Positions 8,204 through 60,506 of a stretch of DNA of 64,000 nt are shown piece by piece; within the stretch, counting starts at the first letter, position 1; every line of letters begins with the position of its first letter. The translations under genes were made by a program, and so were the position numbers. Source of the DNA: Haliotis rubra (lineage: Eukaryota); contig NW_025766525.1 in assembly GCF_003918875.1 (NCBI RefSeq), positions 502,865 to 566,864 of the forward strand. Direction: 5' to 3'. The notes below the pieces were generated by a model. The model was not told where the DNA came from. It saw nothing but the letters and a program-made list of their open reading frames with translations, and searched no databases.

Positions 8204-8312
8204 AAGATGAAATGTTAAGAGACAGGATAGCACTGATAAACACTGATGGTTTGAGAAAAACATGATCTTAATCTACCAGAGGCTGTAGCCCCAGTTGTAC
8301 AGTAGGACACCT

Positions 8313-22960: not shown

Positions 22961-23208
22961 ACCTGCTTTGAGCAGTACTGGTATGCTGAATACTGGAGGC
23001 TCACTCATTCACTCACTCACTCACTCACTCACTCAGCTACTGTCTACCGTTGTCGTAACTCCTCGAACATAGTCTCTATGATCACTGCGTGAACTTAGCT
23101 CAATCACTTCTTGTCCCATGTTGTTAGATTTTATACAATGTTGTCCAGTGTTGTCAAGTCTTGTCCCATGTTGTCCAGTGTTGTCAAGTCTTGTCCCATG
23201 TTGTCCAG

Positions 23209-23346
23209 GGCTATGATAAGAAGACAGATGCAGCTACTTTCTTTGTGGTGGAGATCCACGTGACTCAGTCCCAGGACCAGAACAAGGACTCAGAGGACCC
23301 CCGCTTCAGGGTGTACACACACCACGGCAGTCTCAAGGATGCTCAG
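23209..23346 (+). CDS. PARP4: PARP4 exon 4
   Basis: The acceptor is ttgtccag|GGC and the donor is CAG|gtgatg. It encodes GYDKKTDAATFFVVEIHVTQ...SLKDAQ, aligning to human VGMEGGQEAVVVELQC.... Confidence 0.65.
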
Positions 23347-23759: not shown

Positions 23760-23924
23760 GAAGGGTATGACTGTTGTAGGGAGTGTAGATATGCCAAAAC
23801 ATCGGAGGAAATACTGGCCATATTTGGTAATGTGCACAAGGAACAGACGCTGCCAGGCAAGAAGATGGCCGTGGTTACAGGGAGGAAAGTCAGCAGGAAT
23901 ATTGGATCTCCAAAACTGCAAAAG
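23760..23924 (+). CDS. PARP4: PARP4 exon 5
   Basis: The acceptor is ctgttccag|GAA and the donor is AAG|gtgaaa. EGYDCCRECRYAKTSEEILAIFGNVHKEQ aligns to human RRQFAIKKTSEDASEYFENYIEELKKQ. Confidence 0.7.
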
Positions 23925-24303: not shown

Positions 24304-24441
24304 ATTTTGGCAGAGTTACCTTCTGAAAGTAATGACCTTGACCCCCATGTGTCCGACCTTGTTGAACATGTGTGGCGTGAGGTTGCAGGGGAGATAACTG
24401 AGGTTATCACAATGCCAGTTGACAAAGTGAAGATGGACCAG
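24304..24441 (+). CDS. PARP4: PARP4 exon 6
   Basis: The acceptor is tgttccag|ATT and the donor is CAG|gtagga. ILAELPSESNDLDPHVSDLVEHVWREVAGEITEVITMPVDKV matches human LSQEVSDLVEMIWAEALGHLEHMLLKPVNRI. Confidence 0.8.
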
Positions 24442-24839: not shown

Positions 24840-25170
24840 TTGCTTAGCCTGCCTAAACAGATGGGTCGGTAGAAACATGCAGGGTGGCAGCCTAAACAGA
24901 TGGGTTGGTAGAAACATGCAGGGTAGCTGCCTAAACAGATGGGTTGGTAGAAACATGCAGGGTAGCTGCCTAAACAGATGGGTTGGTAGAAACATGCAGG
25001 GTAGCTGCCTAAACAGATGGGTTGGTAGAAATATGAAGGGTAGCTGCCTAAACAGATGGGTAGGTAGAAACATGCAGGGTGGCAGCTTAAACAGATGGGT
25101 TGGTAGTAATATGAAGGGTAGCTGCCTGAACAGATGGGTTGGTAGAAACATGAAGGGTAGGCAGCTAGGA
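24840..25170. repeat. Tandem array in PARP4 intron 6, about 39 bp x 8 (cctaaacagatgggttggtagaaacatgcagggtagctg)
   Basis: Read directly. ORFs 24796..25209 and 24816..25151 are repeat artefacts. Confidence 0.85.
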
Positions 25171-25199: not shown

Positions 25200-27600
25200 A
25201 AAGAATTGATGTGAGGTGCTACTAATGTGTATTAAAGTGCAAGAGAAGTACGTAGGAGGTTGCCTACTGGTGTATCCTGGGAGAAGTGCGTAGGAGGTTG
25301 CCTACTGGTGTATTGGGAGAAGTGTGTAGGAGGTTGCCTACTGGTGTATTTGGGAGAAGTGTGTAGGATGTTGCCTACTGATGTGTTTGGGAGAAGTATG
25401 TAGGAGGTTGCCTACTGGTGTATTGGGAGAAGTGTGTAGGAGGTTGCCTACTGGTGTGTTTGGGAGAAGTGTGTAGGAGGTTGCCTACTGGTGTGTTTGG
25501 GAGAAGTGTGTAGGATGTTGCCTACTGGTGTGTTTGGGAGAAGTGTGTAGGATGTTGCCTACTGGTGTGTTTGGGAGAAGTGAGTGAGAGGTTGCCTACT
25601 GATGTATTTGGGAGAAGTGTGTAGGAGGTTGCCTACTGGTGTGTTTGGGAGAAGTGAGTGAGGAGGTTGCCTACTGATGTATTTGGGAGAAGTGTGTAGG
25701 AGGTTGCCTACTGTGTGTGTTTGGGAGAAGTGAGTAGGAGGTTGCCTACTGATGTATTTGGGAGAAGTGTGTAGGAGGTTGCCTACTGGTGTGTTTGGGA
25801 GAAGTGCCCTACTGATGGTGAGAGGTTGCCTACTGATGTGTTTGGGAGAAGTGTGTAGGAGGTTGCCTACTGGTGTGTTTGGGAGAAGTGTGTAGGAGGT
25901 TGCCTGCTGGTGTATTTGGGAGAAGTGTGTAGGAGGTTGCCTACTGGTGTATTTGGGAGAAGTGTGTAGGAGGTTGCCTACTGGTGTGTTTGGGAGAAGT
26001 GAGTGAGAGGTTGCCTACTGATGTATTTGGGAGAAGTGTGTAGGAGGTTGCCTACTGGTGTGTTTGGGAGAAGTGAGTGAGAGGTTGCCTACTGATGTGT
26101 TTGGGAGAAGTATGTAGGAGGTTGCCTACTGGTGTGTTTGGGAGAAGTGTGTAGGAGGTTGCCTACTGGTGTATTTGGGAGAAGTGAGTAGGAGGTTGCC
26201 TGCTGGTGTATTTCGGAGAAGTATGTAGGGGCTTGCCTACTAGTATATTGGGAGAAGTGAGTAGGAGGTTGCCTGCTGTTGTATTTGGGAGAAGTGTGTA
26301 GGAGGTTGCCTACGGGTGTGTTTGGGAGAAGTGAGTGGGAGGTTGCCTACTGATGTATTTGGGAAAAGTGAGTGGGAGGTTGCCTACTGATGTATTTGGG
26401 AGAAGTATGTAGGGGGTTGCCTACTGGTGTATTGGGAGAAGTGTGTAGGAGGTTGCCTACTGGTGTATTTGGGAGAAGTATGTAGGAGGTTGCCTACTGG
26501 TGTATTTGGGAGAAGTATGTAGGAGGTTGCCTACTGGTGTATTTGGGAGAAGTGTGTAGGAGGTTGCCTATTGGTGTATTTGGGAGAAGTGTGTAGGAGG
26601 TTGCCTACTGGTGTATTTGGGAGAAGTGTGTAGGAGGTTGCCTACTGATGTATTTGGGAGAAGTGTGTAGGAGGTTGCCATTTGGGAGGAGAAGTGGAGG
26701 TTTACTGGGAGGGTGAAGTGTAGGAGGTTGCCTACTGGTGTGTTTGGGAGAAGTGAGTGGAGGTTGCCTACTGATGTGTTTGGGAGAAAGTATGTAGGAG
26801 GTTGCCCACTGGTGTGTTTGGGAGAAGTGTGTAGGAGGTTGCCTACTGGTGTGTTTGGGGGAGAAGTGTAGGATGTTGCCTACTGGTGTGTTTGGGAGAA
26901 GTGTGTAGGAGGTTGCCTACTGGTGTATTTGGGAGAAGTGTGTAGGAGGTTGCCCACTGGTGTGTTTGGGAGAAGTGTGTAGGAGGTTGCCTACTGGTGT
27001 GTTTGGGAGAAGTGAGTAGGAGGTTGCCTACTGGTGTATTTGGGAGAAGTGAGTGGGAGGTTGCCTACTGGTGTGTTTGGGAGAAGTGTGTAGGAGGTTG
27101 CCTACTGGTGTATTTGGGAGAAGTGTGTAGGAGGTTGCCTACTGGTGTGTTTGGGAGAAGTGAGTGAGAGGTTGCCTACTGATGTGTTTGGGAGAAGTAT
27201 GTAGGAGGTTGCCTACTGGTTACTGTGTTGTTTGGTAGAAGTGTGTAGGAGGTTGCCTATTGGTGTGTTTGGGAGAAGTTAGTAGGAGGTTGCCTACTGA
27301 TGTGTTTGGGAGAAGTGTGTAGGATGTTGCCTACTGATGTGTTTGGGAGAAGTGTGTAGGAGGTTGCCTACTGGTGTGTTTGGGAGAAGTGTGTAGGAGG
27401 TTGCCTACTGGTGTGTTTGGGAGAAGTATGTAGGAGGTTGCCTACTGGTGTGTTTGGGAGAAGTGAGTGAGAGGTTGCCTACTGATGTATTTGGGAGAAG
27501 TGTATAGGATGTTGCCTACTGGTGTGTTTGGGAGAAGTGTGTAGGAGGTTGCCTACTGGTGTGTTTGGGAGAAGTGAGTGAGAGGTTGCCTACTGATGTG
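25200..27600. repeat. Minisatellite in PARP4 intron 6, about 37 bp x about 65 (gggagaagtgtgtaggaggttgcctactggtgtgttt)
   Basis: Read directly. Confidence 0.9.
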
Positions 27601-27636
27601 TCCTGGAAGTATTCAGTCCTATTGTCCTTGCTGCAG

Positions 27637-27804
27637 CTGGAGAAGGCGGAGGCCATCTTGATGCAGATCCAGGACTGTTTAATGGCCAACAAGACAGACC
27701 AGCTCAACTCCCTAACGAGTGACTTCTACGAAGCCCTACCACACAGATGTCCGGACCAGGGTGTCAGCAAACAGTGGGTGGCCACTAAGCTTGACCTGTG
27801 TCAG
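27637..27804 (+). CDS. PARP4: PARP4 exon 7 (PARP regulatory helical region)
   Basis: The acceptor is ctgcag|CTG and the donor is CAG|gtgggt. LEKAEAILMQ...DFYEALPHRCPDQGVSKQWVATKLDLCQ matches human SKAEGILLL...EFYRLIPHKGTMPKEVNLGLLAKKADLCQ. Confidence 0.8.
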
Positions 27805-28095: not shown

Positions 28096-28256
28096 TTGAT
28101 CCGGGATATGATCTCCGTGAGCGAGGCCACTAATTGGTCAACTAGAAGCAGCACTGAGGCCAAATACCGAGCCCTGCGATGCAATATTGGCCATCTCGAG
28201 TCACATGACCCACAACACAAGTTGGTGAGAGACCTTGTGGAATCGTCCATCGAAGG
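28096..28256 (+). CDS. PARP4: PARP4 exon 8
   Basis: The acceptor is ttccag|TTG and the donor is GG|gtaagt, phase 2. LIRDMISVSEATNWS...AKYRALRCNIGHLESHD matches human LIRDMVNVCETNLSK...AKYRALRCKIEHVEQN. Confidence 0.85.
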
Positions 28257-28604: not shown

Positions 28605-28742
28605 CGATTTAAAGATGGAGATCAAAGCTGTGTACGAGGTGCAGCGACCCATCGAAGAAACCAACTTCCGTCATGATATTGACCCCAAACGACTCCTGTT
28701 CCATGCATCCAGGCCAGAAAACTTTGTCGGAATATTGTCACG
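28605..28742 (+). CDS. PARP4: PARP4 exon 9 (PARP catalytic)
   Basis: The acceptor is ttttgtaag|C and the donor is CG|gttggt. DLKMEIKAVYEVQRPIEETNFRHDIDPKRLLFHASRPENFVGILSR matches human VDVLQIFRVGRVNETTEFLSKLGNVRPLLHGSPVQNIVGILCR. Confidence 0.85.
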
Positions 28743-29177: not shown

Positions 29178-29276
29178 AGGACTGTTGTTGCCGAAAGTTG
29201 TAGTGGAGAACTACGGGGGTCAGAGGTCAGACGCAGGGATGCTGGGAGGTGGACTCTACTTTGCCAGTGCTGCCAG
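29178..29276 (+). CDS. PARP4: PARP4 exon 10 (PARP catalytic)
   Basis: The acceptor is ttttcag|A and the donor is AG|gttagc. GLLLPKVVVENYGGQRSDAGMLGGGLYFASAA matches human GLLLPKVVEDRGVQRTDVGNLGSGIYFSDS. Confidence 0.85.
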
Positions 29277-29289
29277 GTTAGCTTGGGCT

Positions 29290-32040
29290 CATTGTGGTCA
29301 TTATTGAGTACTCACTGAAGAAGATAATGTTATGTAGTTAGCTCACCTGATGCAAGTGCCCAAGACAATGTTATTAAGTAGTCTCACCTGATGCAAGTGC
29401 CCAAAACAATGTTATCAAGTAGGCTCACCTGATGCAAGTGTCCAAAACAATGTTATCAAGTAGTCTCACCTGATGCAAGTGATGTTAGAGTGCCCAGGTG
29501 AAAGGTGCCCAAGACAATGTTATTAAGTAGTCTCACCTGGTGAAGAGTGCCCAAGTCAATGATATCAAGTAGTCTCACCTGGTGAAGAGTGCCCGAGACA
29601 ATGTTATCAAGTAGTCTCACCTGATGCAAGTGCCCGAGACAATGTTATTAAGTAGTCTCACCTGGTGAAGAGTGCCCAAAACAATGTTATCAAGTAGTCT
29701 CACCTGATGAAGTGCCCAAGAACAATGTTATTAAGTAGTCTCACCTGGTGAAGAGTGCCCAAAACAATGTTATCAAGTAGTCTCACCTGATGCAAGTGCC
29801 CAAGACAATGTTATTAAGTAGTCTCACCTGGTGAAGAGTGCCCAAAACAATGTTATCAAGTAGTCTCACCTGATGCAAGTGCCCAAGACAATGTTATTAA
29901 GTAGTCTCACCTGGTGAAGAGTGCCCAAAACAATGTTATCAAGTAGTCTCACCTGGTGAAAAGTGCCCAAAACAATGTTATCAAGTAGTCTCACCTGGTG
30001 AAGAGTGCCCAAAACAATGTTATCAAGTAGTCTCACCTGGTGAAAAGTGCCCAAAACAATGTTATCAAGTAGTCTCACCTGGTGCAAGTGCCCAAAACAA
30101 TGTTATCAAGTAGTCTCACCTGGTGAAAAGTGCCCAAAACAATGTTATCAAGTAGTCTCACCTGGTGAAAAGTGCCCAAGACAATGTTATCAAGTAGTCT
30201 CACCTGGTGAAAAGTGCCCAAAACAATGTTATCAAGTAGTGCAGAAAAGTGCCCAAAACAATGTTATCAAGTAGTCTCACCTGGTGAAAAGTGCCCAAAA
30301 CAATGTTATTAAGTAGTCTCACCTGGTGAAAAGTGCCCAAAACAATGTTATCAAGTAGTCTCACCTGGTGAAAAGTGCCCAAAACAATGTTATCAAGTAG
30401 TCTCACCTGGTGAAAAGTGCCCAAGACAATGTTATTCAAGTAGTCTCACCTGGTGAAAAGTGCCCAACATAATGTTATTAAGTAGTCTCACCTGGTGAAA
30501 GAGTGCCCAAGACAATGTTATCAAGTAGTCTCACCTGGTGAAAAGTGCCCAAAACAATGTTATCAAGTAGTCTCAAGTAGTCTCACAATGTTATCAAAGT
30601 CTCACCTGGTGCCCAAAACAATGTTATCAAGTAGTCTCACCTGGTGAAAAGTGCCCAAAACAATGTTATCAAGTAGTCTCACCTGGTGAAAAGTGCCCAA
30701 AACAATGTTATCAAGTAGTCTCACCTGGTGAAAAGTGCCCAAAACAATGTTATCAAGTAGTCTCACCTGGTGAAGAGTGTGCCAAAGACAATGTTATCAA
30801 GTAGTCTCACCTGGTGAAAAGTGCCCAAGATAATGTTATTAAGTAGTCTCACCTGGTGAAAAGTGCCCAAAACAATGTTATCAAGTAGTCTCACCTGGTG
30901 AAAAGTGCCCAAAACAATGTTATCAAGTAGTCTCACCTGGTGAAAAGTGCCCAAGACAATGTTATTAAGTAGTCTCACCTGGTGAAAAGTGCCCAAGATA
31001 ATGTTATCAAGTAGTCTCACCTGGTGAAAAGTGCCCAAAACAATGTTATCAAGTAGTCTCACCTGGTGAAAAGTGCCCAAGACAATGTTATCAAGTAGTC
31101 TCACCTGGTGAAAAGTGCCCAAAACAATGTTATCAAGTAGTCTCACCTGGTGAAAAGTGCCCAACATAATGTTATTAAGTAGTCTCACCTGGTGAAAAGT
31201 GCCCAACATAATGTTATTAAGTAGTCTCACCTGGTGAAAAGTGCCCAAAACAATGTTATCAAGTAGTCTCACCTGGTGAAGAGTGCCCAAAACAATGTTA
31301 TCAAGTAGTCTCACCTGGTGAAAAGTGCCCAAAACAATGTTATCAAGTAGTCTCACCTGGTGAAAAGTGCCCAAAACAATGTTATCAAGTAGTCTCACCT
31401 GGTGAAAAGTGCCCAAAACAATGTTATCAAGTAGTCTCACCTGATGCAAGTGCCCAAGACAATGTTATTAAGTAGTCTCACCTGTGCAAGTGCCCAAGAC
31501 AATGTTATTAAGTAGTCTCACCTGGTGAAGAGTGCCCAAAACAATGTTATCAAGTAGGTCTCACCTGATGAAAAGTGCCCAAAACAATGTTATTAAGTAG
31601 TCTCACCTGGTAAAAAGTGCCCAAAACAATGTCATCAAGTAGTCTCACCTGGTGAAGAGTGCCCAAACAATGTTATCAAGTAGTCTCACCTGGTGAAAAG
31701 TGCCCAAACAATGTTATCAAGTAGTCTCACCTGGTGAAAAGTGCCCAAAACAATGTTATCAAGTAGTCTCACCTGGTGAAAAGTGCCCAACATAATGTTA
31801 TTAAGTAGTCTCACCTGGTGAAAAGTGCCCAACATAATGTTATTAAGTAGTCTCACCTGTGAAAAGTGCCCAACAAATGTTACAAGTCAAGTAGTCTCAC
31901 CTGGTGAAAAGTGCCCAACATAATGTTATTAAGTAGTCTCACCTGTGAAAAGTGCCCAACATAATGTTATTAAGTAGTCTCACCTGTGAAAAGTGCCCAA
32001 CATAATGTTATTAAGTAGTCTCACCTGTGAAAAGTGCCCA
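29290..32040. repeat. Minisatellite in PARP4 intron 10, about 42 bp x about 65 (gtagtctcacctggtgaaaagtgcccaaaacaatgttatcaa)
   Basis: Read directly. The unit resembles the sequence just upstream of the exon 11 acceptor (aatgttatga...atttagctcacctggctctgttgcag). ORFs 29866-31449 are artefacts. Confidence 0.9.
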
Positions 32041-32112
32041 ACATAATGTTATGATTTATTAGTCACCGAAATGTTAATGACATGGTATTTAGCTCACCTG
32101 GCTCTGTTGCAG

Positions 32113-32296
32113 CACCAGTGCCCAGTACTCCCGTGAGAGCAAGACAAAGGGCACACGGCTGATGCTGGTGGCTGATGTTGCTCTTGGCCAGTGTAAGGAT
32201 CTGTTTAACCATGACAGGACCCTCAAGTGCCCCCCAGAGGGCTATCACAGTGTACATGGTGTCAAGAACTCTCCCAACACACCATCAGACTTCATG
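32113..32296 (+). CDS. PARP4: PARP4 exon 11 (PARP catalytic)
   Basis: The acceptor is tgttgcag|C and the donor is ATG|gtagga. TSAQYSRESKTKGTRLMLVADVALGQCKDLFNHDRTLKCPPEGYHSVHGVKNSPNTPSDF matches human TSIKYSHPGETDGTRLLLICDVALGKCMDLHEKDFSLTEAPPGYDSVHGVSQTASVTTDF. Confidence 0.85.
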
Positions 32297-32299
32297 GTA

Positions 32300-33286
32300 G
32301 GATGCTTTGACTGCCAGGCTGATGTTTGAGTATGTTTTGATTGCAAGGCTGATGTTTGAGTATGTCTGACTGCCAGGCTGATGTTTGAGTATGTCTGACT
32401 GCCAGGCTGATGTTTGAGTATGTTTGACTGCCAGGCTGATGTTTGAGTATGTTTGACTGCCAGGCTAATTGTTTAGTATGTTTGACAGCCAGGCTGATGT
32501 TTGAGTATGTCTGACTGCCAGGCTGATGTTTGAGTATGTCTGACTGCCAGGCTGATGTTTGAGTATGTCTGACTGCCAGGCTGATGTTTGAGTATGTTTG
32601 ACAGCCAGGCTGATGTTTGAGTATGTCTGACTGCCAGGCTGATGTTTGAGTATGTCTGACTGCCAGGCTGATGCTTTAGTATGTTTGACTGCCAGGCTGA
32701 TGTTTGAGTATGTTTGACAGCCAGGCTGATGTTTGAGTATGTCTGACTGCCAGGCTGATGTTTTAGTATGTTTGACAGCCAGGCTGATGTTTGAGTATGT
32801 TTGACTGCCAGGCTGATGTTTGAGTATGTTTGACTGCCAGGCTGATGTTTGAGTATGTCTGACTGCCAGGCTGATGTTTGAGTATGTCTGACTGCCAGGC
32901 TGATGCTTTAGTATGTTTGACTGCCAGGCTGATGTTTGAGTATGTTTGACAGCCAGGCTGATGTTTGAGTATGTCTAACTGCCAGGCTGATGCTTTAGTA
33001 TGTTTGACAGCCAGGCTGATGTTTGAGTATGTTAGACTGCTAGGCTGACGTTTTAGTATGTTTGACAGGCTGATGTTTGACTGTTTGACTGCCAGGCTGA
33101 TTTTTGAGATGTTTGACTGCCAGGCTGATGTTTGAGTATGTTTGACTGCCAGGCTGATGTTTGTGTATGTTTGACTGTCAGGCTGATGTTTGAGTGTCAG
33201 GCTGATGTTTGACTGTTTGACTGCTAGGCTAATGTTTGAGTATGTTACTGTGCCAGGCTGATGTGTGATGATGTTTTTACTTCCAG
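32300..33286. repeat. Minisatellite in PARP4 intron 11, about 29 bp x about 34 (ctgatgtttgagtatgtctgactgccagg), abutting exon 12
   Basis: Each unit contains ccag|gctgatg, which is identical to the real acceptor plus the first 7 nt of exon 12 (ccag|GCTGATGag). Confidence 0.9.
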
Positions 33287-33443
33287 GCTGATGAGTATGC
33301 TGTGTACTGCGTCAAGCAGCAGCGTCTGAGATACCTGGTGGAGTTTAGCCTGCAGGGGGACCAAGTTCGGGATGTAATTCTAGCAGACATCCAGCAAGAC
33401 TTGGAGCAGACGGCACTGGCTGACATGTTGCAGGACAACTTGG
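33287..33443 (+). CDS. PARP4: PARP4 exon 12
   Basis: The acceptor is tacttccag|GCTGATG and the donor is G|gtatgt, phase 1. ADEYAVYCVKQQRLRYLVEFSLQGDQVRD matches human DDEFVVYKTNQVKMKYIIKFSMPGDQIKD. Confidence 0.8.
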
Positions 33444-33696: not shown

Positions 33697-33830
33697 ACTT
33701 GTCGGACGTGCTGGGCATTGAGGACCCTCTGTCTAAGGTGGAGGCTGGTCTGGTTTCCGAGGGCAACAAGATGGCTGTGGAGCTGCAAGGAGTTCACATC
33801 CGCTCCAAACTGGTGGACCTGGCTGCTCAG
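33697..33830 (+). CDS. PARP4: PARP4 exon 13 (start of VIT domain)
   Basis: The acceptor is ctacggcag|AC and the donor is CAG|gtggga. ...GVHIRSKLVDLAAQ matches human EDVHIKGRIIDTVAQ. Confidence 0.75.
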
Positions 33831-34314: not shown

Positions 34315-34539
34315 GTGATAGTTCTCCAGGAGTACTACAACACCAGTGACACTGCTGTGGAGGCCAAATATGTGTTTCCTCTGGACGACATGGCTGCTGT
34401 GTGTGGGTTCGAAGCATTTATCAATGACAAGCACATCATAGGCGAGGTCAAAGAGAAGGAGCAGGCTCACAAGGAGTACAAGAAGGCTGTCAGTGAAGGT
34501 CATGGAGCTTATCTGATGGACAGAGATGAAGAGACACCG
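34315..34539 (+). CDS. PARP4: PARP4 exon 14 (VIT domain)
   Basis: The acceptor is tctgcag|GTG and the donor is CCG|gtaagt. VIVLQEYYNTSDTAVEAKYVFPLDDMAAVCGFEAFINDKHIIGEVKEKEQAHKEYKKAVSEGHGAYLM matches human VIVFQTYTNKSHVPIEAKYIFPLDDKAAVCGFEAFINGKHIVGEIKEKEEAQQEYLEAVTQGHGAYLM. Confidence 0.9.
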
Positions 34540-34605
34540 GTAAGTTTGGCTGAAGGTCAACAGTGAAGGTCATGGAGCTTATCTGATTGACAGAGATGAA
34601 GACAC

Positions 34606-35172
34606 CATTCTTTTCCCACAGAGGTTACTCCTGTCATATCTTCCCACATGTAACCTCTGTTCTAATAATGCCCTTTCATGGTGTGAGCTGCTTCAAGACT
34701 CCTCGGATTGGAGACAATCAGATTTAGTTGTGCAATCAGCAACGCTTGTTTCAAAAGTGATCATTCGCAAGGCCCTCGGTAATTTCCGTGATACTTCGAG
34801 AAAACTAAACCTTCTTCCCGCGCCGATGCGCTAAACGCTTCCTCTAGACAGAACTCAGTCATGTTATGGCGGATCAGTGGATCTCCATCGCCTCGCTGAC
34901 AACGGACAAGCTAGCCATTAAACGCCTTGTGTGTAACATCAACACAAGTCCCCGCAGATGGGGATATTTGTGGCTTCACATTTGCTTGTGTTAGTCAAGT
35001 TGAATCTAAGTCGATGTAACACCTGTTCTGATTGGATAGAAAGAAGGGAGATAATTCATTTTGCGATCTTTGCCGCTTAGGGATTTTAAGAGAACCGGGA
35101 AATATGGCCGTATTAGAACAGAGGTTACGTGTAGGAAGATATGACAGGAGTAACCTCTGTGGGAAGAGAATG
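34606..35172. mobile_element. MITE (about 567 bp, TIRs of about 55 bp), copy 1, in PARP4 intron 14
   Basis: The left TIR is cattcttttcccacagaggttactcctgtcatatcttcccacatgtaacctctgttctaata. Its reverse complement lies at 35118-35172 (tattagaacagaggttacgtgtaggaagatatgacaggagtaacctctgtgggaagagaatga). Confidence 0.7.
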
Positions 35173-35809
35173 ATGAAGAGACACTGGTAAGTTTGGCTGA
35201 AGGTCAACAGTGAAGGTCGTGGACATTATCTCATGGACAGAGATGAAGAGACACTGGTAAGTTTGGCTGAAGGTCAACAGTGAAGGTCATGGAGCTTATC
35301 TCATGGACAGAGATGAAGAGACACTGGTAAGTTTGGCTGAAGGTCAACAGTGAAGGTCATGGAGCTTATCTGATGGACAGAGATGAAGAGACACCGGTAA
35401 GTTTGGCTGAAGGTCAACAGTGAAGGTCATGGAGCTTATCTGATGGACAGAGATGAAGAGACACCGGTAAGTTTGGCTGAAGGTCAACAGTGAAGGTCAT
35501 GGAGCTTATCTGATGGACAGAAGATGAAGAGACACACCTGTAAGTTTGGCTCAAGGTCAACAGTGAAGGTCATGGAGCTTATCTGATGGACAGAGATGAA
35601 GAGACACTGGTAAGTTTGGCTGAAGGTCAACAGTGAAGGTCATGGAGCTTATCTCATGGACAGATTAAGAGACACTGGTAAGTTTGGCTGAAGGTCAACA
35701 GTGAAGGTCATGGAGCTTATCTGATGGACAGAGATGAAGAGACACCGGTAAGTTTGGCTGAAGGTCAGTAGTGATGCTCATGGAGCTTATCTGATGGACA
35801 GAGATGAAG

Positions 35810-36377
35810 CATTCTCTTCCCACAGAGGTTACTCCTGTCATATCTTCCCACGTAACCTCTGTTCTAATAATGGCCCTTTCATGGTGTGAAGCGTTCAAGA
35901 CTTCGTGATTGGAGACAATCAGATTTAGTTGTGCAATCAGCGGCGTTGTTTCAAAAGTGATCATTTGCAAGGCCTCGGTAATTTCCGTATACTCGAGAAA
36001 ACTAAACCTCTTCCCCTGCGCGCGATGCGCATAGCGTTTCCTCTAGACAGAACTCAGTCATGTTATGGCCCGGATCAGTGGCGTCTCCATCGCCCTCGTT
36101 GACAACGGACAAGCTAGCCATTAAAGCGTCTTGTGTGTAACATCAACACAAGTCCCCGGCAGATGGGGGATATTTGTGGCTTCACATTTGCTTGTGTTAG
36201 TCAAGTTGAATCTAAGTCGATGTAACACCTGTTCTGATTGGATAGAAAGAAGGGAGATAATTGCATTTTTGCGATCTTTTGCGCTAGGGATTTTAAGAGA
36301 ACGGGAAATATGGTCAGATTAGAACAGAGGTTACGTGAGGAAGATATGACAGGAGTAACCTCTGTGGGAAGAGAATG
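35810..36377. mobile_element. MITE copy 2 (same family as 34606-35172)
   Basis: It is near-identical to copy 1 and sits in the same donor-repeat context. This implies duplication of a MITE-plus-array block. Confidence 0.7.
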
Positions 36378-36679
36378 AGATGAAGAAGAGACACTGGTAA
36401 GTTTGGCTGAAGGTCAACAGTGAAGGTCATGGAGCTTATCTCATGGACAGAGATGAAGAGACATTGGTAAGTTTGGCTGAAGGTCAACAGTGAAGGTCAT
36501 GGAGCTTATCTCATGGACAGAGATGAAGAGACACTGGTAAGTTTGGCTGAAGGTCAACAGTGAAGGTCATGGAGCTTATCTCATGGACAGAGATGAAGAG
36601 AGAATGGTAAGTTCGGTCATCAGTGAAGGTTATGGGGTGTGTTGTAAGAGAAGGTCATTTATCCATTCTGATGGACAGA

Positions 36680-37200
36680 ATTTTAGGATTGCAGTAAGTT
36701 AGAGGTGAAGGTCTGACAGGGATGTTGTCAGGGAAGATTGTGGATCTTGTCTGATACAGTAAGTTAGAGGTGAAGGTCTGACAGGGATGTTGTCAGGGAA
36801 GATAGTGGCTCTTGTCTGATACAGCAAGTTAGAGGTGAAGGTCTGACAGGGATGTTGTCAGGGAAGATTGTGGATCTTGTCTGATACAGTAAGTTAGAGG
36901 TGAAGGTCTGACAGGGATGTTGTCAGGGAAGATTGTGGATCTTGTCTGATACAGTAAGTTAGAGGTGAAGGTCTGACAGGGATGTTGTCAGGGAAGATTG
37001 TGGATCTTGTCTGATACAGTAAGTTAGAGGTGAAGGTCTGACAGGGATGTTGTCAGGGAAGATAGTGGCTCTTGTCTGATACAGCAAGTTAGAGGTGAAG
37101 GTCTGACAGGGATGTTGTCAGGGAAGATTGTGGATCTTGTCTGATACAGTAAGTTAGAGGTAAGGTCTGACAGGGATGTTGTCAGGGAAGATTGTGGATC
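36680..37200. repeat. Tandem array, about 62 bp x 8 (cagtaagttagaggtgaaggtctgacagggatgttgtcagggaagattgtggatcttgtctgata)
   Basis: Read directly. Confidence 0.85.
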
Positions 37201-37319
37201 TTGTCTGATACAGTAGAGAATAACGTCTTGATTGAAAGAGAACAACAGGGCTCCCACGGGTCAGGGAAAAGTCAGAACCAGGCATATTGATATTGCTGTC
37301 ATCACTAAGAACCAGTTTC

Positions 37320-37376
37320 TGTGAGCATGTTTAATGTTTCAGGATGTTTAATGTTTCAGCATGTTTAATGTTTCAG
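37320..37376 (+). repeat. Triplicated exon 15 acceptor motif (atgtttaatgtttcag x3) immediately upstream of exon 15
   Basis: The sequence reads gcatgtttaatgtttcag gatgtttaatgtttcag catgtttaatgtttcag|GATGTG. Confidence 0.85.
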
Positions 37377-37541
37377 GATGTGTTCACAGTGAGTGTTGGC
37401 AACCTCCCACCCCATGCATCTGTCCTCATCAAGATTACTTACGTAGCTGAACTACAGGTTGAAGCAGAACTTATAAGTTTCCGGTTACCAGGCAGTGTGG
37501 CACCATGGAAGCAAGACTCTGCAGCTGATGAAATCACTCAG
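37377..37541 (+). CDS. PARP4: PARP4 exon 15 (VIT domain)
   Basis: The acceptor is gtttcag|GAT and the donor is CAG|gtattt. DVFTVSVGNLPPHASVLIKITYVAEL...VAPWKQD matches human DVFTVSVGNLPPKAKVLIKITYITEL...VAPWQQD. Confidence 0.9.
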
Positions 37542-37749: not shown

Positions 37750-37863
37750 ACTGAGCTGGAAACACACAAGGTTCAATCAGGGGACACCACTGTGCAGGTT
37801 GCCGTGGAGATGCCATTTGACATTCGCTCAATACAGTGTCCTTCACACAAAGTCCGAATCAAG
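37750..37863 (+). CDS. PARP4: PARP4 exon 16
   Basis: The acceptor is ggttacag|ACT and the donor is AAG|gtgaga. ...VAVEMPFDIRSIQCPSHKVRIK aligns to human ...TMSIEMPYVIEFIFSDTHELKQK. Confidence 0.7.
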
Positions 37864-37985: not shown

Positions 37986-38125
37986 AGAACTGCTGCCAAG
38001 GCTGTAGTGCAGATGTGTCATGGACAGTCAATACAAGATGGCTTCCAGCTCCTGATTGGGCTGGCTGAGATACACGTGCCACGGATGTGGGTAGAGAGAC
38101 ATCCAGAGAGAGAGACATGCATCAG
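37986..38125 (+). CDS. PARP4: PARP4 exon 17 (end of VIT domain), with a phase problem at its 3' end
   Basis: The acceptor is cttccag|AGA. RTAAKAVVQMCHGQS...GLAEIHVPRMWVERHPERETCI matches human RTDCKAVISTMEGSS...GLSAAYLPRMWVEKHPEKESE. The only GT donor (CATCAG|gtaggc) leaves phase 2, which is incompatible with exon 18 (phase 0). The difference is one AG unit in a (AG)5 run. Confidence 0.6.
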
Positions 38126-40010
38126 GTAGGCTGGCAGAGGAATGATGGTCTAGTTTGTGGGTAGAGAGACATCCAGAGAGAGAGAGACATGCATCAGGCA
38201 GGCAGGCAGAGGAATGATGGTCTAGTTTGTGGGTGGAGAGACATCCAGACAGAAAGAGACATGCATCAGGTAGGCTGGCAGAGGAATGATGGTCTGGTTT
38301 GTGGGTGGAGAGACATCCAGAGAGAGACATGCATCAGGTAGGCAGGCAGAGGAATGATGGTCTAGTTTGTGGGTGGAGAGACATCCAGAGAGAGAGAGAC
38401 ATGCATCAGGTAGGCAGGCAGAGGAATGATGGTCTAGTTTGTGGGTAGAGAGACATCCAGAGAGAGAGAGACATGCATCAGGCAGGCAGGCAGAGGAATG
38501 ATGGTCTAGTTTGTGGGTGGAGAGACATCCAGACAGAAAGAGACATGCATCAGGTAGGCAGGCAGAGGAATGATGGTCTAGTTTGTGGGTGGAGAGACAT
38601 CCAGAGAAAGACATGCATCAGGTAGGCAGGCAGAGGAATGATGGTCTAGTTTGTTGGTGGAGAGAGACCAGAGAGAGAGAGAGACATGTATCAGGTAGGC
38701 AGGCAGAGGAATGATGGTCTAGTTTGTGGGTAGAGAGACATCCAGAGAGAGACATGCATCAGGTAGGCAGGCAGAGGAATGATGGTCTAGTTTGTGGGTG
38801 GAGAGACATCCAGGAGAGACACATCAGGTAGGCAGGCAGAGAGATGGTCATGCATCCAGAGACATGCATCAGGTAGGCAGGCAGAGGAATGATGGTCTAG
38901 TTTGTGGGTGGAGAGACATCCAGAGAGACATGATCATAGGCTGGCAGAGGAATGATGGTCTTGTTTGTGGGTAGAGGACATCCAGGCATCAGAGGAATGA
39001 TGGTCTAGTTTGTGGGTGGAGAGACATCCAGAGAGAGACATGCATCAGGTAGGCAGGCAGAGGAATGATGGTCTAGTTTGTGGGTAGAGAGACATCCAGA
39101 GAGAGAGAGACATGCATCAGGTAGGCAGGCAGAGGAATGATGGTCTAGTTTGTGGGTGGAGAGACATCCAGAGAGAGACATGTATCAGGTAGGCAGGCAG
39201 AGGAATGATGGTCTAGTTTGTGGGTGGAGAGACATCCAGAGAGAGACATGTATCAGGTAGGCAGGCAGAGGAATGATGGTCTAGTTTGTGGGTAGAGAGA
39301 CATCCAGAGAAAGACATGTATCAGGTAGGCTGGCAGAGAAATGATGGTCTGGTTTGTGGGTGGAGAGACATCCAGAGAAAGACATGCATCAGGTAGGCAG
39401 GCAGAGGAATGATGGTCTAGTTTGTGGGTGGAGAGACATCCAGAGAGAGAGAGACATGTATCAGGTAGGCAGGCAGAGGAATGATGGTCTAGTTTGTGGG
39501 TAGAGAGACATCCAGAGAGAGACATGCATCAGGTAGGCAGGCAGAGGAATGATGGTCTAGTTTGTGGGTGGAGAGACATCCAGAGAGAGACATGCATCAG
39601 GTAGGCAGGCAGAGGAATGATGGTCTAGTTTGTGGGTGGAGAGACATCCAGAGAGAGACATGCATCAGGTAGGCAGGCAGAGGAATGATGGTCTAGTTTG
39701 TGGGTGGAGAGACATCCAGAGAAAGACATGTATCAGGTAGGCAGGCAGAGGAATGATGGTCTAGTTTGTGGGTAGAGAGACATCCAGAGAGAGAGAGACA
39801 TGCATCAGGTAGGCAGGCAGAGGAATGATGGTCTAGTTTGTGGGTGGAGAGACATCCAGAGAGAGACATGTATCAGGTAGGCAGGCAGAGGAATGATGGT
39901 CTAGTTTGTGGGTGGAGAGACATCCAGAGAGAGAGACATGCATCAGGTAGGCAGGCAGAGGAATGATGGTCTAGTTTGTGGGTAGAGAGACATCCACAGA
40001 GAGAGACATG
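38050..40010. repeat. Exon 17 donor-derived minisatellite in intron 17, about 68-76 bp x about 27
   Basis: The unit gtgggtggagagacatccagagagagacatgcatcag|gtaggcaggcagaggaatgatggtctagttt reproduces the exon 17 3' end (WVERHPERETCI) plus the GT donor. The (ag)n length varies between copies. ORFs 38028-38614 and 39253-39525 are artefacts. Confidence 0.9.
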
Positions 40011-40150
40011 CATCAGGCAGGGGATGCCGCATGCGACATGTTATATGTGTGTTTGGATCGTTGTTGTTGTTTGAGTAACATCATGGTGTGCCAGGTTCAT
40101 GTTGGGTATTCCCTCCACAATCATTCTTTGTTCTTCATTCTATATTCTAG

Positions 40151-40337
40151 GCCTGCATGTTGACATTTTACCCTGAGTTTGAGGCTGACGAGGACGATGA
40201 TGTGGAAATTGTGTTCGTCCTTGACCTCTCCAATTCCATGTCTGGTGATGCAGTGCTGGATGCCAAGAAGCTGTTGATGATGTTGCTGCACAACTTGCCA
40301 CCGCGCTCTACCTTCAACGTCCTCTGCTTCGGAACAG
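40151..40337 (+). CDS. PARP4: PARP4 exon 18 (vWA domain start)
   Basis: The acceptor is tattctag|GCC and the donor is ACAG|gtcagt, phase 1. ACMLTFYPEF...VEIVFVLDLSNSMSGDAVLDAKKLLMMLL...FNVLCFGTG matches human ACMLVFQPDL...EVIICLDCSSSMEGVTFLQAKQIALHAL...VNIIQFGTG. Confidence 0.85.
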
Positions 40338-40469
40338 GTCAGTGTCATCCACAGAGTGTGGTCCTAAGTATGTGATTTGACAATGAATTGTTGATGGGGA
40401 ATGATAAGACATATAAAGGAAATAATTAGTAAACTTATTCAATGACATAATACTTAGATGATGGGGGGA

Positions 40470-43140
40470 TGTTGTGGATTGGTAACGTCATGACACAAGG
40501 TTGTGGGAAGGTTGTAGATTGGTAACATCATGACACAGCGTTGTGGGAAGGTTGTAGATTGGTAATGTCATGACACAATGTTGTGGGAAAGTTGTAGGTT
40601 AGTAACATCATGACACAACGTTGTGGGAAGGTTGTAGATTGGTAACGTCATGACACAACGCTGTGGGAAGGTTGTAGATTGGTAATGTCATGGTACAATG
40701 TTGTGGGAAGGTTGTAGATTGGTAACATCATGACAACATTGTGGGAAGGTTGTCGATTGGTAATGTCATGACACAAGGTTGTGGGAAGGTTGTAGATTGG
40801 AAACGTCATGACAACGTTGTGGGAAGGTTGTAGATTGGTAACGTCATGACAGCAATTTTGTGGGAAGGTTGTAGATTAGTAACGTCATGACACAAGGTTG
40901 TGGGAAGGTTGTAGATTGGTAACATGATGACACAGCGTTGTGGGAAGGTTGTAGATTGGTAATATCATGACACAGTGTTGTGGGAAGATTGTAGATTGGT
41001 AACGTCATGACACAACGTTGTGGGAAGGTTGTAGATTGGTAACATCATGACACAGCATTGTGGGAAGGTTGTAGATTGGTAACGTCATGACACAACGTTG
41101 TGGGAAGGTTGTAGATTGGTAATGTCATGACACAATGTTGTGGGAAGGTTGTAGATTGGTAACATCATGACACAATGTTGTGGGAAGGTTTTAGATTGGT
41201 AACGTCATGACACAATGTTGTGGGAAGGTTGTAGATTTGTAATGTCATGACACAACATTGTGGGCAGGTTATAGATTGGTAACGTCATGACACAATGTTG
41301 TGGGGATGTTGTAGATTAGTAACATCATGACAACGTTGTGGGAAGGTTGTAGATTGGTAACGTCATGAAACAACGTTGTGGGAAGGTTATAGATTGGTAA
41401 TGTCATGAGAAAAGGTTGTGAAAAGGTTATAGATTGGTAACGTCATGACACAATGTTGTGGGAAGGTTGCAGATTGGTAATGTCATGACACAATGTTGTG
41501 GGGATTTTGTAGATTGGTAACGTCATGACACAATGTTGTGGGGATGTTGTAGATAAGTAACATCATGACACAGCGTTGTGGGAAGGTTGTAGATTGGTAA
41601 TGTCATGACACAACGTTGTGGGAAGGTTATAGATTGGTAATGTCATGAGAAAAGGTTGTGAAAAGGTTATAGATTGGTAACGTCATGAGAAAAGGTTGTG
41701 GGAAGGTTGTAGATTGGTAATGTCATGACACAGCGTTGAGGGAAGGTTGTAGATTGGTAACGTCATGAGAAAAGGTTGTGGGAAGGTTATAGATTGGTAA
41801 TGTCATGACACAGCGTTGTGGGAAGGTTATAGATTGGTTACGTCATGAGAAAAGGTTGTGGGAAGGTTGTAGATTGGTAATGTCATGACACAGCGTTGTG
41901 GGAAGGTTGTAGATTGGTAACGTCATGACAAAGGTTGTGGGAAGGTTATAGATTGGTAATGTCATGACACAGCGTTGTGGGAAGGTTATAGATTGGTAAC
42001 GTCATGAGAAAAGGTTGTGGGAAGGTTGTAGATTGGTAATGTCATGACACAGCGTTGTGGGGATGTTGTGGATTGGTAACGTCATGACACAATGTTGTGG
42101 GGATGTTGTAGATTGGTAACGTCATGACACAAGGTTGTGGGAAGGTTGTAGATTGGTAACATCATGACACAGCGTTGTGGGAAGGTTGTAGATTGGTAAT
42201 GTCATGACAGCGTTGTGGGAAGGTTGTAGATTGGTAATGTCATGACACAGGCGTTGTGGGAAGGTTGTAGATTGGTAATGTCATGACACAGCGTTGTGGG
42301 AAGGTTGTAGATGTCATGACACAGCGTTGTGGGAAGGTTGTAGGTTGGTAATGTCATGACACAGCATTGTGGGAAGGTTGTAGATTGGTAACATCATGAC
42401 ACAACGCTGTGGGAAGGTTGTAGATTGGTAATGTCATGACACAGCGTTGTGGGAAGGTTGTAGATTGGTAATGTCATGACACAGCGTTGTGGGAAGGTTA
42501 TAGATGTCATGACACAGCGTTGTGGGAAGGTTATAGATTGGTAATGTCATGACACAGCGTTGTGGGAAGGTTGTAGGTTGGTAATGTCATGACACAGCGT
42601 TGTGGGAAGGTTGTAGATGTCATGACACAGCGTTGTGGGAAGGTTGTAGGTTGGTAATGTCATGACACAGCGTTGTGGGAAGGTTGTAGATTGGTAATGT
42701 CATGACACAACGTTGTGGGAAGGTTATAGATTGGTAATGTCATGACACAGCGTTGTGGGAAGGTTGTAGATGTCATGACACAGCGTTGTGGGAAGGTTGT
42801 AGATGTCATGAGACAGCGTTGTGGGAAGGTTGTAGATGTCATGACACAGCGTTGTGGGAAGGTTGTAGATGTCATGACACAGCGTTGTGGGAAGGTTGTA
42901 GGTTGGTTATGTCATGACACAGCGTTGTGGGAAGGTTGTAGATTGGTAATGTCATGACACAACGTTGTGGGAAGGTTATAGATTGGTAATGTCATGACAC
43001 AGCGTTGTGGGAAGGTTGTAGATGTCATGACACAGCATTGTGGGAAGGTTGTAGATGTCATGACACAGCGTTGTGGGAAGGTTGTAGATGTCATGACACA
43101 GCGTTGTGGGAAGGTTGTAGATGTCATGACACAGCGTTGT
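40470..43140. repeat. Minisatellite in PARP4 intron 18, about 39 bp x about 68 (gttgtgggaaggttgtagattggtaacgtcatgacacaa)
   Basis: Read directly. ORFs 42660-43208 are artefacts. Confidence 0.9.
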
Positions 43141-43459
43141 GGCAAATTGCCAAATAAACATTGAAGTGAATTTCTGCTTTGTTTCTTACTACTGGGAAAA
43201 CAATTCAACTATTAACATAAATAGAACGTTAAGTCAACGTAAAATACGTTAGTGTCAAATACCTTAACGTAAATGGGAGCCCATCAGAATAACGTTGTAA
43301 CAGCGAAAGCATAATGTGGTGACTTCATTTTGTAGAATAGACGAATATGGGTCTGAATGATGACATAAAGGAAGACACCCTAGTTTGTGAACTATGATAA
43401 ATTGGGAGTAATATTTGAGTAAGTTATGTTCCTGTACATGGTGTTTGGTGTGTTGCCAG

Positions 43460-47459: not shown

Positions 47460-48700
47460 AAACACTGTCAGTGTTGTGGGGTGGCTTATCTCACCACTGT
47501 GGGATGGCTTATCTCACTTCTGTGGGGTGGCTTATCTCATCACTGTGGGGTGGCTTATTTCACCACTGTGGGGTGGCTTATTTCACCACTGTGGGGTGGC
47601 TTATCTCACCACTGTGGGGTGGCTTATCTCACTACCGTGGGACGGCTTATCTCACCACAGTATGATGGCTTATCTCACCACTGTAGGGTGGCTTATCTCA
47701 CCACTGTGGGGGAATTATCTCTTTTCCGTTGGGGGCTTATCTCACCACTATTGGGTGGGGTATCTCACCACTGTGGGGTGGCTTGTCTCACCTCTGTGTG
47801 TGTGTGTGGGGGGGCTTGGGGGCCTTATCTCACCACTGTAGGATGGCTTATCTCATCACTGTAGGGTGGCTTATCTCACCACTGTGGGGTGGCTTATCTC
47901 ACTTCTGTGGAGTAGCTTATCCCATCACTGTGGGGTGGCTTATCTCACCACTGTGGGGTGGCTTATCTCACCACTGTGGGGTGGCTTATCTCACTTCTGT
48001 GGAGTAGCTTATCTCATCACTGTGGGGTGGCTTATCTCATCACTGTAGGCTGGCTTATCTCACTTCTGTTGGGGGCTTATCTCACCACTATTGGGTGGGG
48101 TATCTCACCGCTGTGGGGTGGCTTGTTTCATGACTGTGGGGCTGCTTATCTCACCAATCTGGGGTGGCTTATCCCATCACTGTGGGGTGGCTTATCTCAC
48201 CACTGTGGGGGTTTATCTCACTTCTGTGGAGTAGCTTATCTCATCACTGTGGGGTGGCTTATCTCACCACTGTTGGGGGCTTATCTCACTTCTGTTGGGG
48301 GCTTATCTCACCACTATTGGGTGGGGTATCTCACCACTGTGGGGTGGCTTGTCTCACCACAGGGTGTGTGTGTGGGGGGGCCTTATCTCACCACTGAGGG
48401 GTGGCTTATCTCACCACTGTGGGGGGCTTATCTCACCACTGTGGGGTGGCTTATCTCACCACTGTGGGGTGGCTTATCTCACCACTGTGGGATGGCTTGT
48501 CTCATCACTGTGGGTGGCTTATCTCATCACTGCGGGTGGCGTATCTCACCACTATTGCTTGGCTTATCTCACCACTATTGCTTGGCTTATCTCACCACTG
48601 TGGGGTGGCTTATCTTACCACTGTGGGGTGGCTTGTCTCACCACTGTGGGGTGGTGTATCTCATCACTGTGGCTTATGTCGACACTTTTGGGTGGCTTAT
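47460..48700. repeat. Minisatellite in PARP4 intron 21, about 23 bp x about 54 (cactgtggggtggcttatctcac)
   Basis: Read directly. ORFs 47454-48747 are artefacts. Confidence 0.9.
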
Positions 48701-48916
48701 CTGACCCCTGGCTGATCACTGTGGCTCGATTCCCCATGGGAAGATAATGTTTGAGGCGGGTTCCTAAAGCCCTTGCTAACAGGACCCAAGTTAAAACAGT
48801 ACATTGATTGGATAATACATTGTTTAATGGATTAAAGTTATTGATGTTGCAAAAACCATACATGTAGAAATGTTCCTATTTTCCCTGATGAATAAACTGA
48901 AGCCTTCCATCAACAG

Positions 48917-49087
48917 GTGAAGTCTCAGCTGAGTAAGGCCTCACAACCAGGTCTGACCTCGGTGGCAGTTGAGTGGCAACAATTTGACAATGATGCAGCA
49001 ACATTGCCACAAGCTCCGCGGCAGATCACAGCTCTATTCAATGGCTCACGTCAAGTTGTATATGGACTGGTACCTAACTGCACCATG
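48917..49087 (+). CDS. PARP4: PARP4 exon 22
   Basis: The acceptor is catcaacag|GTG and the donor is ATG|gtgggt. ...SVAVEWQQFDNDAATLPQAPRQITALFNGSRQVVYGLVPNCT matches human ...SVSVKWQQLNPDVPEALQAPAQVPSLFLNDRLLVYGFIPHCT. Confidence 0.9.
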
Positions 49088-49122
49088 GTGGGTATATATG
49101 GGTAGTAGATGTGTTAACGCTT

Positions 49123-49125
<3 letters not shown>

Positions 49126-49180
<55 letters not shown>
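49126..49180. repeat. (GAT)n microsatellite inside the 114-bp PARP4 intron 22
   Basis: gatgatgat... repeats about 18 times. Confidence 0.95.
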
Positions 49181-49201
49181 TATCTGACTGTTTCGATGTA
49201 G

Positions 49202-49282
49202 GCAACCTTGAAAGCTGTTGTTGGGGGACAGGAAGTGTCAACAGTAGTCTCGACGTCTGAACTTAGCATCACAACAGGAATG
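49202..49282 (+). CDS. PARP4: PARP4 exon 23
   Basis: The acceptor is tcgatgtag|GCA and the donor is ATG|gtaaga. ATLKAVVGGQEVSTVVSTSELSITTG matches human ATLCALIQEKEFRTMVSTTELQKTTG. The preceding 114-bp intron contains (gat)n. Confidence 0.85.
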
Positions 49283-49652
49283 GTAAGATATTTTAGTGTT
49301 GTTTTCATTCATGCTGAGAAGTAGTGAGTGTGTTGTTCACTCCTGTGACTCACAGATAGACATGTCTTCATTGTTTGTGTATTGAATGTAAATACATATC
49401 GATGCAAACATATTGATATCTCCTTGTCATATATTATCGTTTTTTATGATCCTATTTCATGTGTAACTAGTAAAATCAGGCCTACTGGCCTAACATCAAA
49501 TGCTTCCCTTGTATGGCCCAGTGGTAGGCTCATATATAATCATCATGATGCACCTATTTGTTGTAATCCCACAGGTAAATCACTAAATAGGTACAAATAG
49601 TGAAAAACATCTTAACCTGGTATCAACTGACCCCTGTATGTCCTGATTACAG

Positions 49653-60407: not shown

Positions 60408-60506
60408 AAGCTGGTTCGTAAACCTTCAAGACATAGCCGAACCAGATCCCGTGCCACTTCCTGTTCGACCTGATCTACTGGTACATCCGCACACCGACCA
60501 ACTGCA

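Follow-up and report, generated by a model that had tools for sequence, protein, structure and literature searches.

The window analysed here, a 64-kb stretch of molluscan DNA, carries a PARP4 (vault PARP) gene over about 36.6 kb of its forward strand (13800-50400). The identification, first made from the sequence alone, is borne out by the domains of the spliced model: Pfam finds PARP_reg (2.5e-7), the PARP catalytic domain (1.5e-31) and VIT (7.2e-37), and these are followed by a vWA-like exon recognised by a tblastn match to PARP4 sequence only. With exons 14 to 17 as query, the best named match is the C. gigas ‘poly [ADP-ribose] polymerase 4-like’ protein at 74% identity, with fish at 53%; protein searches spanning the exon junctions return at most 74% identity over most of the query, and exon-sized fragments reach up to 85%. 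Exact look-ups of the two window ORFs that cover exons 14 and 15 gave no match, nor did a 32-nt probe from exon 15 in metagenome contigs. A fish or other vertebrate origin of the DNA was rejected on these identities and on the abalone proteins that are the best named matches of the neighbouring retroelement; an amphioxus origin, considered because of the junction repeats described below, has no positive support, the named matches pointing to molluscs. Fourteen exons with canonical GT-AG borders join into an uninterrupted ORF of 708 amino acids. The boundaries were taken from database proteins and from the sequence itself. The numbering in the earlier note on this DNA, which spoke of exon 4 and exon 15, is consistent with the exons placed, and is kept here; neither exons 1-3 nor the N-terminal BRCT domain could be placed in the gene model. 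In order, the exons are:

23209-23346, forward strand: exon 4
23760-23924, forward strand: exon 5
24304-24441, forward strand: exon 6
27637-27804, forward strand: exon 7
28096-28256, forward strand: exon 8
28605-28742, forward strand: exon 9
29178-29276, forward strand: exon 10
32113-32296, forward strand: exon 11
33287-33443, forward strand: exon 12
33697-33830, forward strand: exon 13
34315-34539, forward strand: exon 14, ending ...GAYLMDRDEETP/gtaagt in phase 0 (slashes mark splice junctions or unit limits throughout)
37377-37541, forward strand: exon 15, 165 nt, phase 0 to 0, in the middle of the VIT domain
37750-37863, forward strand: exon 16
37986-38125, forward strand: exon 17
40151-40339, forward strand: vWA-like exon, outside the 708-residue model

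Exon 15 encodes DVFTVSVGNLPPHASVLIKITYVAELQVEAELISFRLPGSVAPWKQDSAADEITQ and is followed by gtattt. Homology and reading frame both point to the AG at 37375-76 as its authentic, productive acceptor. In genomic contigs from other species, more than 20 homologous ORFs continue across the same border as ...Q(cag)/DVFTVSVGNLPP; the Q is the translated cag of the acceptor, and the residues before it are unrelated between species. Spliced homologues carry LMDQDEETP/EVFTV (C. gigas XP_011429775.2) and LMDQDEETP/DVFTV (Solemya velum), and in two genomic ORFs of relatives (P0164 and P0167) the similarity to PARP4 ends exactly at ETP/V(gt). Exon 14 (...DEETP) joins DVFTVSVGNL in phase 0, an arrangement shared with the PARP4 of oyster, Solemya and human, and the 708-residue frame stays open only with the AG at 37375-76. 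The boundary can be taken as authentic because of this homology and because the ORF is open over 14 GT-AG exons, in agreement with the initial reading that the last of several AGs is the real one.

Immediately upstream of this boundary, intron 14 ends in a head-to-tail array of three 17-nt units, each terminating in ATGTTTAATGTTTCAG. The sequence of about 37320-37390 reads tgtgAG/CATGTTTAATGTTTCAG/GATGTTTAATGTTTCAG/CATGTTTAATGTTTCAG/GATGTGTTCACAG, and is made up as follows:

37326-37342, forward strand: unit 1, CATGTTTAATGTTTCAG; decoy AG at 37341-42, exon extension of 34 nt
37343-37359, forward strand: unit 2, GATGTTTAATGTTTCAG; decoy AG at 37358-59, exon extension of 17 nt
37360-37376, forward strand: unit 3, CATGTTTAATGTTTCAG; 3' splice site taken as authentic, AG at 37375-76
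37324-37381, forward strand: entire repeated block, from the 24-nt repeats and Tandem Repeats Finder

The units differ at their first base only, and all three keep the splice signal, ending in CAG. Tandem Repeats Finder gives a period of 17 with 3.2 copies, 94% matches and a score of 103 over 37327-37381 (55 nt). A repeat search finds three 24-nt copies, at 37324, 37341 and 37358, spaced by 17 nt, and the 16-mer ATGTTTAATGTTTCAG occurs three times in the 64 kb, all within the triplet, against an expectation of 0.13 and with three matches reached in none of 100 shuffles. The three measures agree on the tandem 17-nt units ending in tttcag that the earlier note had described, and the triplet is genuine and non-random. 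The 24-nt sequence at 37324, AGCATGTTTAATGTTTCAGGATGT, is 100% identical to the copy at 37358, including the preceding AG and the following GATGT; the copy at 37341 is 92% identical. The copy at 37358 crosses the intron/exon border into the first five exon bases (GATGT), and the junction CAG/GATGT is found twice, once where unit 1 meets unit 2 and once where unit 3 meets the exon. From -17 to +5 there is no difference between units 1 and 3, which also present the same sequence at the positions used in MaxEnt-type 3' splice-site scoring, so sequence strength cannot separate decoy from authentic AG. Sharing only 5 nt with the exon, the 17-nt unit is almost purely intronic, and its similarity to exon 15 is not above that of shuffles (z = 0.3), for which reason an origin of the unit from exon 15 was rejected. 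The predicted RNA fold of 37280-37420 has no special structure that might hide the decoys (-31.5 kcal/mol, with shuffles averaging -31.1; z = -0.12), and Rfam has no match anywhere in the window.

What would follow from use of an upstream AG? Read in phase 0 from exon 14, the extended exons begin:

unit 2 AG, forward strand, +17 nt: ...ETP-H-V-TAA
unit 1 AG, forward strand, +34 nt: ...ETP-D-V-TAA
GAG at 37324-25, forward strand, +51 nt, in frame: ...ETP-H-V-TAA

The 17- and 34-nt extensions shift the frame, as had been pointed out, and additionally both meet a TAA at the third added codon. None of the upstream AGs (+17, +34, +51, +61 and +67) gives an open frame. A stop codon far upstream of later exon junctions generally makes an mRNA a substrate for NMD, and by this rule the +17 and +34 mRNAs would be expected to be such substrates.

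The earlier note had suggested looking for the duplication in related species. It is missing from all three orthologous loci compared (L001, L002 and L003/L004), which belong to distant relatives with 85-87% amino-acid identity in exon 15. Each has a single acceptor before the DVFTV exon and no repeat; the acceptors end in ...tttttttttacag/, ...gtgtacatcag/ and ...ctgctttgtag/, and these intron ends are unrelated to that of the window. Since all three loci have a single acceptor without a repeat, we take the triplet to be lineage-specific, and since its copies are identical or nearly so, the duplication is probably recent. The position of intron 14 is ancient, being shared by oyster-type, Solemya-type and related loci, and its border has not shifted. 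The corresponding PARP4 region in the orthologous loci holds few minisatellites, and hardly any in L002 and L004; none lies at a junction. Repeats of another kind precede the same conserved acceptor in other species. In P0024 the acceptor follows a 15-nt x 3 repeat, SPPLPSPPLPSPPLK/DVFTV, seen as protein only; in the visible frame the upstream units have P where the last unit has K, with no apparent copy of the acceptor AG. P0028 reads HVHTHAHTQ/DVFTV, which suggests a CA-rich simple repeat.

A second repeated acceptor precedes exon 4, the phase of which was set via exon 5:

23138-23208, forward strand: perfect 30-nt x 2.4 repeat (Tandem Repeats Finder; 71 nt) ending at the exon-4 acceptor

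Within it TTGTCCAG stands at 23141, 23171 and 23201, the last copy being the acceptor of the exon that starts at 23209. The repeated ttgtccag reported here from the first reading is thus present, while its description as a smaller-scale version does not hold, the repeat covering 71 nt against 55 nt at exon 15. In contrast to the exon-15 decoys, the CCAG sites at -30 and -60 keep the frame and meet no stop, each adding CCQVLSHVVQ; the CAAG sites at -20 and -50 shift the frame. Exon 4 has good splice sites on both sides and its frame agrees with that of exon 5. Its peptide (GYDKKTDAATFFVVEIHVTQ..., 23209-23346) has no detectable homologue in a representative library of 1.84 billion proteins and belongs to a fast-evolving part of PARP4.

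The triplet is the smallest case of gene-wide minisatellites that copy exon-intron junctions. Tandem Repeats Finder returns 106 rows in the window, some overlapping, and the 21 major arrays tabulated amount to 14.5 kb of the PARP4 span, or about 40%. Those related to splice junctions, with the intron that holds most of them, are:

32306-33275, forward strand: 29-bp array, nearly all of intron 11 (32297-33286)
34540-37376, forward strand: intron 14, 2837 nt
34494-34601, 35172-35809 and 36385-36613, forward strand: 70-bp arrays of intron 14, exon-14 end and donor
36692-37215, forward strand: diverged 65-bp array of intron 14, exon-14 end and donor
38086-40021, forward strand: 68-bp x 27.6 array, starting inside exon 17 and running into intron 17

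The 29-bp units (..tgccag/GCTGATGTTTGAGTATG..) reproduce the acceptor of exon 12 together with its first bases (ttccag/GCTGATGAGTATG; exon start at 33287). Intron 11 holds 30 decoy NAG/GCTGATG sites (ccag/GCTGATG..GAGTATG), and the AG is kept in 30 of 30; the real exon 12 acceptor has a better pyrimidine tract (tgtttttacttccag) than these decoys. The exon-side similarity of this array is marginal (z 3.2, its score reached by 2 of 200 shuffles). The 70-, 68- and 65-bp arrays clearly span an exon-intron boundary (shuffle z 18.5, 17.5 and 5.6, respectively). The 70- and 65-bp units consist of the last ~45 nt of exon 14 and its donor, giving intron 14 19 decoy GTAAGT sites, three of which match the real site over CACCGGTAAGT; certain copies still encode EGHGAYLMDRDEETP exactly. 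The first 68-bp unit comprises the final 40 nt of exon 17 and the donor, and CAGGTAGGC is found 24 times in that array, 23 of them as decoys. Beyond the triplet the gene has more than 70 decoy splice sites (30 acceptors in intron 11, 19 and 23 donors in introns 14 and 17), and exons 4-17 are intact beside these older, diverged arrays with their 30 acceptor and more than 40 donor decoys. The idea that intron 17 is a new intron born from its own array was rejected, as L002 has an intron at the same place and the donor of L003, in which exon 18 was not recovered, matches.

Further arrays lie in and around the gene. Intron 10 is filled by 41/42-bp arrays (29326-32052, ~64 copies in total), whose unit (..tagtctcacctggtgaaaagtgcccaaaac..) resembles by eye the flanks of the exon-11 acceptor (tagctcacctgg...AGTGCCCAGTAC) without its pyrimidine tract and AG; an alignment test against the exon side alone is unsupportive (z 1.3). 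Upstream of exon 4, a 43-bp x 12 array (21112-21624) has weak similarity to the interior of exon 4, with a score of 13 that was reached by none of 200 shuffles and that is marginally significant as one of 26 tests. The 37-, 39-, 40- and 23-bp arrays (25243-27601, 24849-25160, 40471-43142 and 47475-48672, respectively) have no detectable relation to an exon junction. A perfect (GAT)18 microsatellite (49126-49180) sits in the short intron that splits an exon pair at ~48902-49285. The propensity to form minisatellites is not confined to PARP4 introns, since a 69-bp minisatellite of ~30 copies lies upstream of PARP4 at 8277-10505, outside any recognised gene.

The closest published likeness is with the mirages of amphioxus, minisatellite-like tandem duplications of exon-intron boundaries (PMC3087553; PMC3902484). 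These have been described in Adh3, with units of 10-72 bp in the account that PMC3087553 gives of Canestro et al. 2002, in the globin genes BflGb6/9 (PMC3087553), and in TnC and PGBD5 (PMC3902484). Overall the units measure 10-160 bp, the duplications involve 5' as well as 3' borders, and the AG or GT is often kept (PMC3087553, PMC3902484). Where amphioxus mirages duplicate splice sites, RT-PCR reportedly detected no aberrant mRNAs (PMC3087553, PMC3902484). The present gene shares with them the head-to-tail repetition of junctions, the involvement of both borders, the mostly kept AG or GT and the presence of several arrays per gene. Its 70-, 68- and 29-bp arrays fit exactly, and the 17-nt triplet falls at the short end of the Adh3 range. 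The host differs, being a mollusc instead of a cephalochordate, and the silence of the decoys, established by RT-PCR in amphioxus, is something that we infer here. No report of mirage-type duplications in molluscs was found in the literature searched. Judged by its sequence, the triplet looks like a very small junction duplication of the mirage type, in a taxon for which the searched literature has not described mirages.

Other systems resemble parts of this picture. In human F7 intron 7, the first unit of a 37-bp VNTR of 5-9 copies spans the exon 7 donor, and of the 5-9 identical donors only the most upstream, exon-adjacent copy is used (PMC1557585). Early globin experiments, as cited in the same paper, found use of the proximal duplicated site, with contradictory results from another group. 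Structurally the F7 VNTR is the same as the donor arrays of introns 14 and 17. The triplet, on the other hand, concerns acceptors, and the F7 logic is not directly transferable, because 5'-to-3' scanning from the branch point favours the acceptor copy farthest from the exon. In NAGNAG ‘wobble’ acceptors and in violations of the AG exclusion zone, several AGs compete near one exon, and in human disease data a newly created AG is usually harmful when it lies more than 6 nt beyond the branch point and more than 5 nt short of the acceptor (PMC1431707, PMC9284458, PMC2668829). The 17-nt spacing of the triplet exceeds the range of direct competition (<12 nt). NAGNAG variants are in frame, whereas the extensions here shift the frame and meet their TAA at the third codon; and the AGs of the triplet come not from a point change but from the duplication of an entire cassette with its branch-like motif. 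Finally, the Rogers model of intron gain or sliding by tandem duplication of AGGT segments, as outlined in PMC3087553 and with Drosophila cases presented in PMC2891723, also has a duplicated splice-signal segment that creates redundant sites, after which the border may shift. It differs in that intron 14 is ancient and its border has not moved.

How could the exon-adjacent AG be chosen among identical copies? Each 17-nt unit contains uuaAu, a match to yUnAy, then a short run rich in U and the CAG. From the branch-like A it is 8 nt to the AG of its own unit and 25 nt to that of the next: A37334 is that of unit 1, and A37351, that of unit 2, is 25 nt upstream of the authentic AG. The pyrimidine content of the acceptor (10/15) is typical for this gene. 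The best classical branch-site match lies further upstream:

37303-37309, forward strand: branch-point-like cacuaAg (A37308), 17, 34, 51 and 68 nt upstream of four successive AGs

Under mammalian rules, the AG used is the first to lie at least 12-15 nt from the branch site, nearer ones being bypassed, with direct competition only between AGs less than 12 nt apart (PMC1431707). Applied to this molluscan host, these rules leave A37351 as the only candidate that puts the authentic AG first beyond the bypass zone. A37334 would by the same rules select the +17 AG, and simple 5'-to-3' scanning from A37308 would lead to the GAG 17 nt on or the unit-1 CAG 34 nt on, both non-productive.

These observations can be joined in a model. 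The triplet would have arisen in a stretch rich in ATGTTT, by slippage during replication or by unequal exchange, and would have no function of its own, the 3'-most AG (37375-76) staying the productive acceptor. Each unit would amount to a complete mini 3' splice-site cassette (branch-like motif, U-rich tract and CAG), with an A too near its own AG, at 8 nt, to serve it and ideally placed, at 25 nt, for the next. Productive splicing would then use the unit-2 branch site (A37351), bypass the AG 8 nt on and choose that of unit 3, a choice that exon definition by the real exon and its donor could help. If A37334 or A37308 were used instead, the mRNA would gain 17 or 34 nt, meet a TAA at the third codon and presumably be degraded by NMD. 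Overall, output would be unaffected or modestly reduced. We favour, with reasonable but far from full confidence, a small and probably recent mirage-type duplication in which the exon-adjacent AG is productive; the choice of branch site, the silence of the decoys or their removal by NMD, and the recency are parts that we infer. Use of the exon-adjacent AG is supported because 30 older decoy acceptors coexist with intact exons and because the published mirages are silent. Counting against it are the scanning from A37308, which favours the decoys, the identity of units 1 and 3, which sequence cannot tell apart, and the early globin experiments in which the proximal site was used.

That same scanning, which meets the decoys first, is what a deleterious or degenerating allele would exploit: the upstream decoys would be mostly used, and the haplotype would yield little functional PARP4. 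Molluscs carry a heavy genetic load and are highly heterozygous, and a second irregularity in the gene points the same way, its exon 17 donor being out of phase with exon 18. The donor, CAG/GTAGGC at 38126, is in phase 2, exon 18 (40151) starts in phase 0, and in the orthologues exon 17 ends ...DHQ/ in phase 0. The exon-adjacent unit of the 68-bp array has a (GA)5 run (38106-38115), and the (GA)4 of several decoy units would restore the frame. The mismatch may come from a frameshift in this allele, from an error in sequencing the GA run, or from splicing at a weak phase-0 donor, TGG/GTAGAG at 38091; this haplotype may, from its sequence, not be fully functional. The argument for correct splicing from an intact gene is weakened because this junction is out of frame in the assembly. 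Even so, 14 consecutive exons keep an uninterrupted, highly conserved ORF of 708 residues with canonical GT-AG borders, the exons are intact beside decoy arrays that are much larger and older, and published mirages leave splicing undisturbed. We consider it unlikely that the haplotype is largely mis-spliced.

Could the decoys instead be put to use? In regulated unproductive splicing they would be used at a controlled rate, a share of the PARP4 pre-mRNA would go to NMD, and expression would be tuned in the manner of a poison exon extension. Both decoys are full-strength copies of the acceptor with an immediate in-frame TAA, and a plausible branch site lies 25-34 nt before each of them. A conserved AS-NMD (poison) site is not what the comparison shows, though: the decoys are missing from all three orthologous loci, and the identity of the copies suggests youth. 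Dozens of junction copies at other exons evidently come from a mutational process, and neither a distinguishing structure (fold z -0.12) nor an Rfam match sets the triplet apart. Such regulation seems improbable. An assembly or sequencing artefact, with the copy number of a short repeat mis-called and 1-2 units in the true genome, would suit the perfect copies and the likely 2-nt length problem in the GA run elsewhere in the gene, but is very improbable for a 51-nt block that has unique flanks and is far below any read length, in a window where many tandem arrays have the internal variation typical of real minisatellites.

On the favoured reading, a mirage-type duplication with a productive exon-adjacent AG, PARP4 biology does not require the triplet, for which no function is evident; its value would be that of a natural experiment in splice-site choice. 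For acceptors, simple scanning from branch point to AG predicts the opposite of exon-adjacent choice. Were the exon-adjacent copies used exclusively, the exon-proximal selection known for the F7 donor would extend to acceptors and to a lophotrochozoan, and mirage-type minisatellites would not be peculiar to amphioxus. A broader proposal, which we put forward tentatively and would not rely on, is that this mollusc lineage has an amphioxus-like, genome-wide propensity to make minisatellites from junctions, and that its spliceosome, at donors and acceptors alike, reliably finds the exon-adjacent one of up to 30 tandem copies whose core splice signal is kept (identical in the 17-nt triplet). If that proposal is true, the triplet would offer the cleanest natural test, with three 3' splice sites, those of units 1 and 3 identical from -17 to +5, that bring their own branch-like motifs. 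Of modest interest alone, the triplet gains from its place among more than 70 tandem decoy splice sites in one gene. Arrays that copy junctions can also mislead gene predictors and splice-aware aligners in the annotation of mollusc genomes.

Outside PARP4, two other groups of ORFs were seen. A GC-rich ORF cluster lies near the start of the window (2200-4050, reverse strand). Towards its end, retroelement ORFs at 57700-61650 (forward strand) include a Pfam RVT-type reverse transcriptase (58474-59361) whose closest named proteins are from three Haliotis species, at 46-69% identity; by eye only, we judge this element to be DIRS-like, with a tyrosine-recombinase-like ORF.
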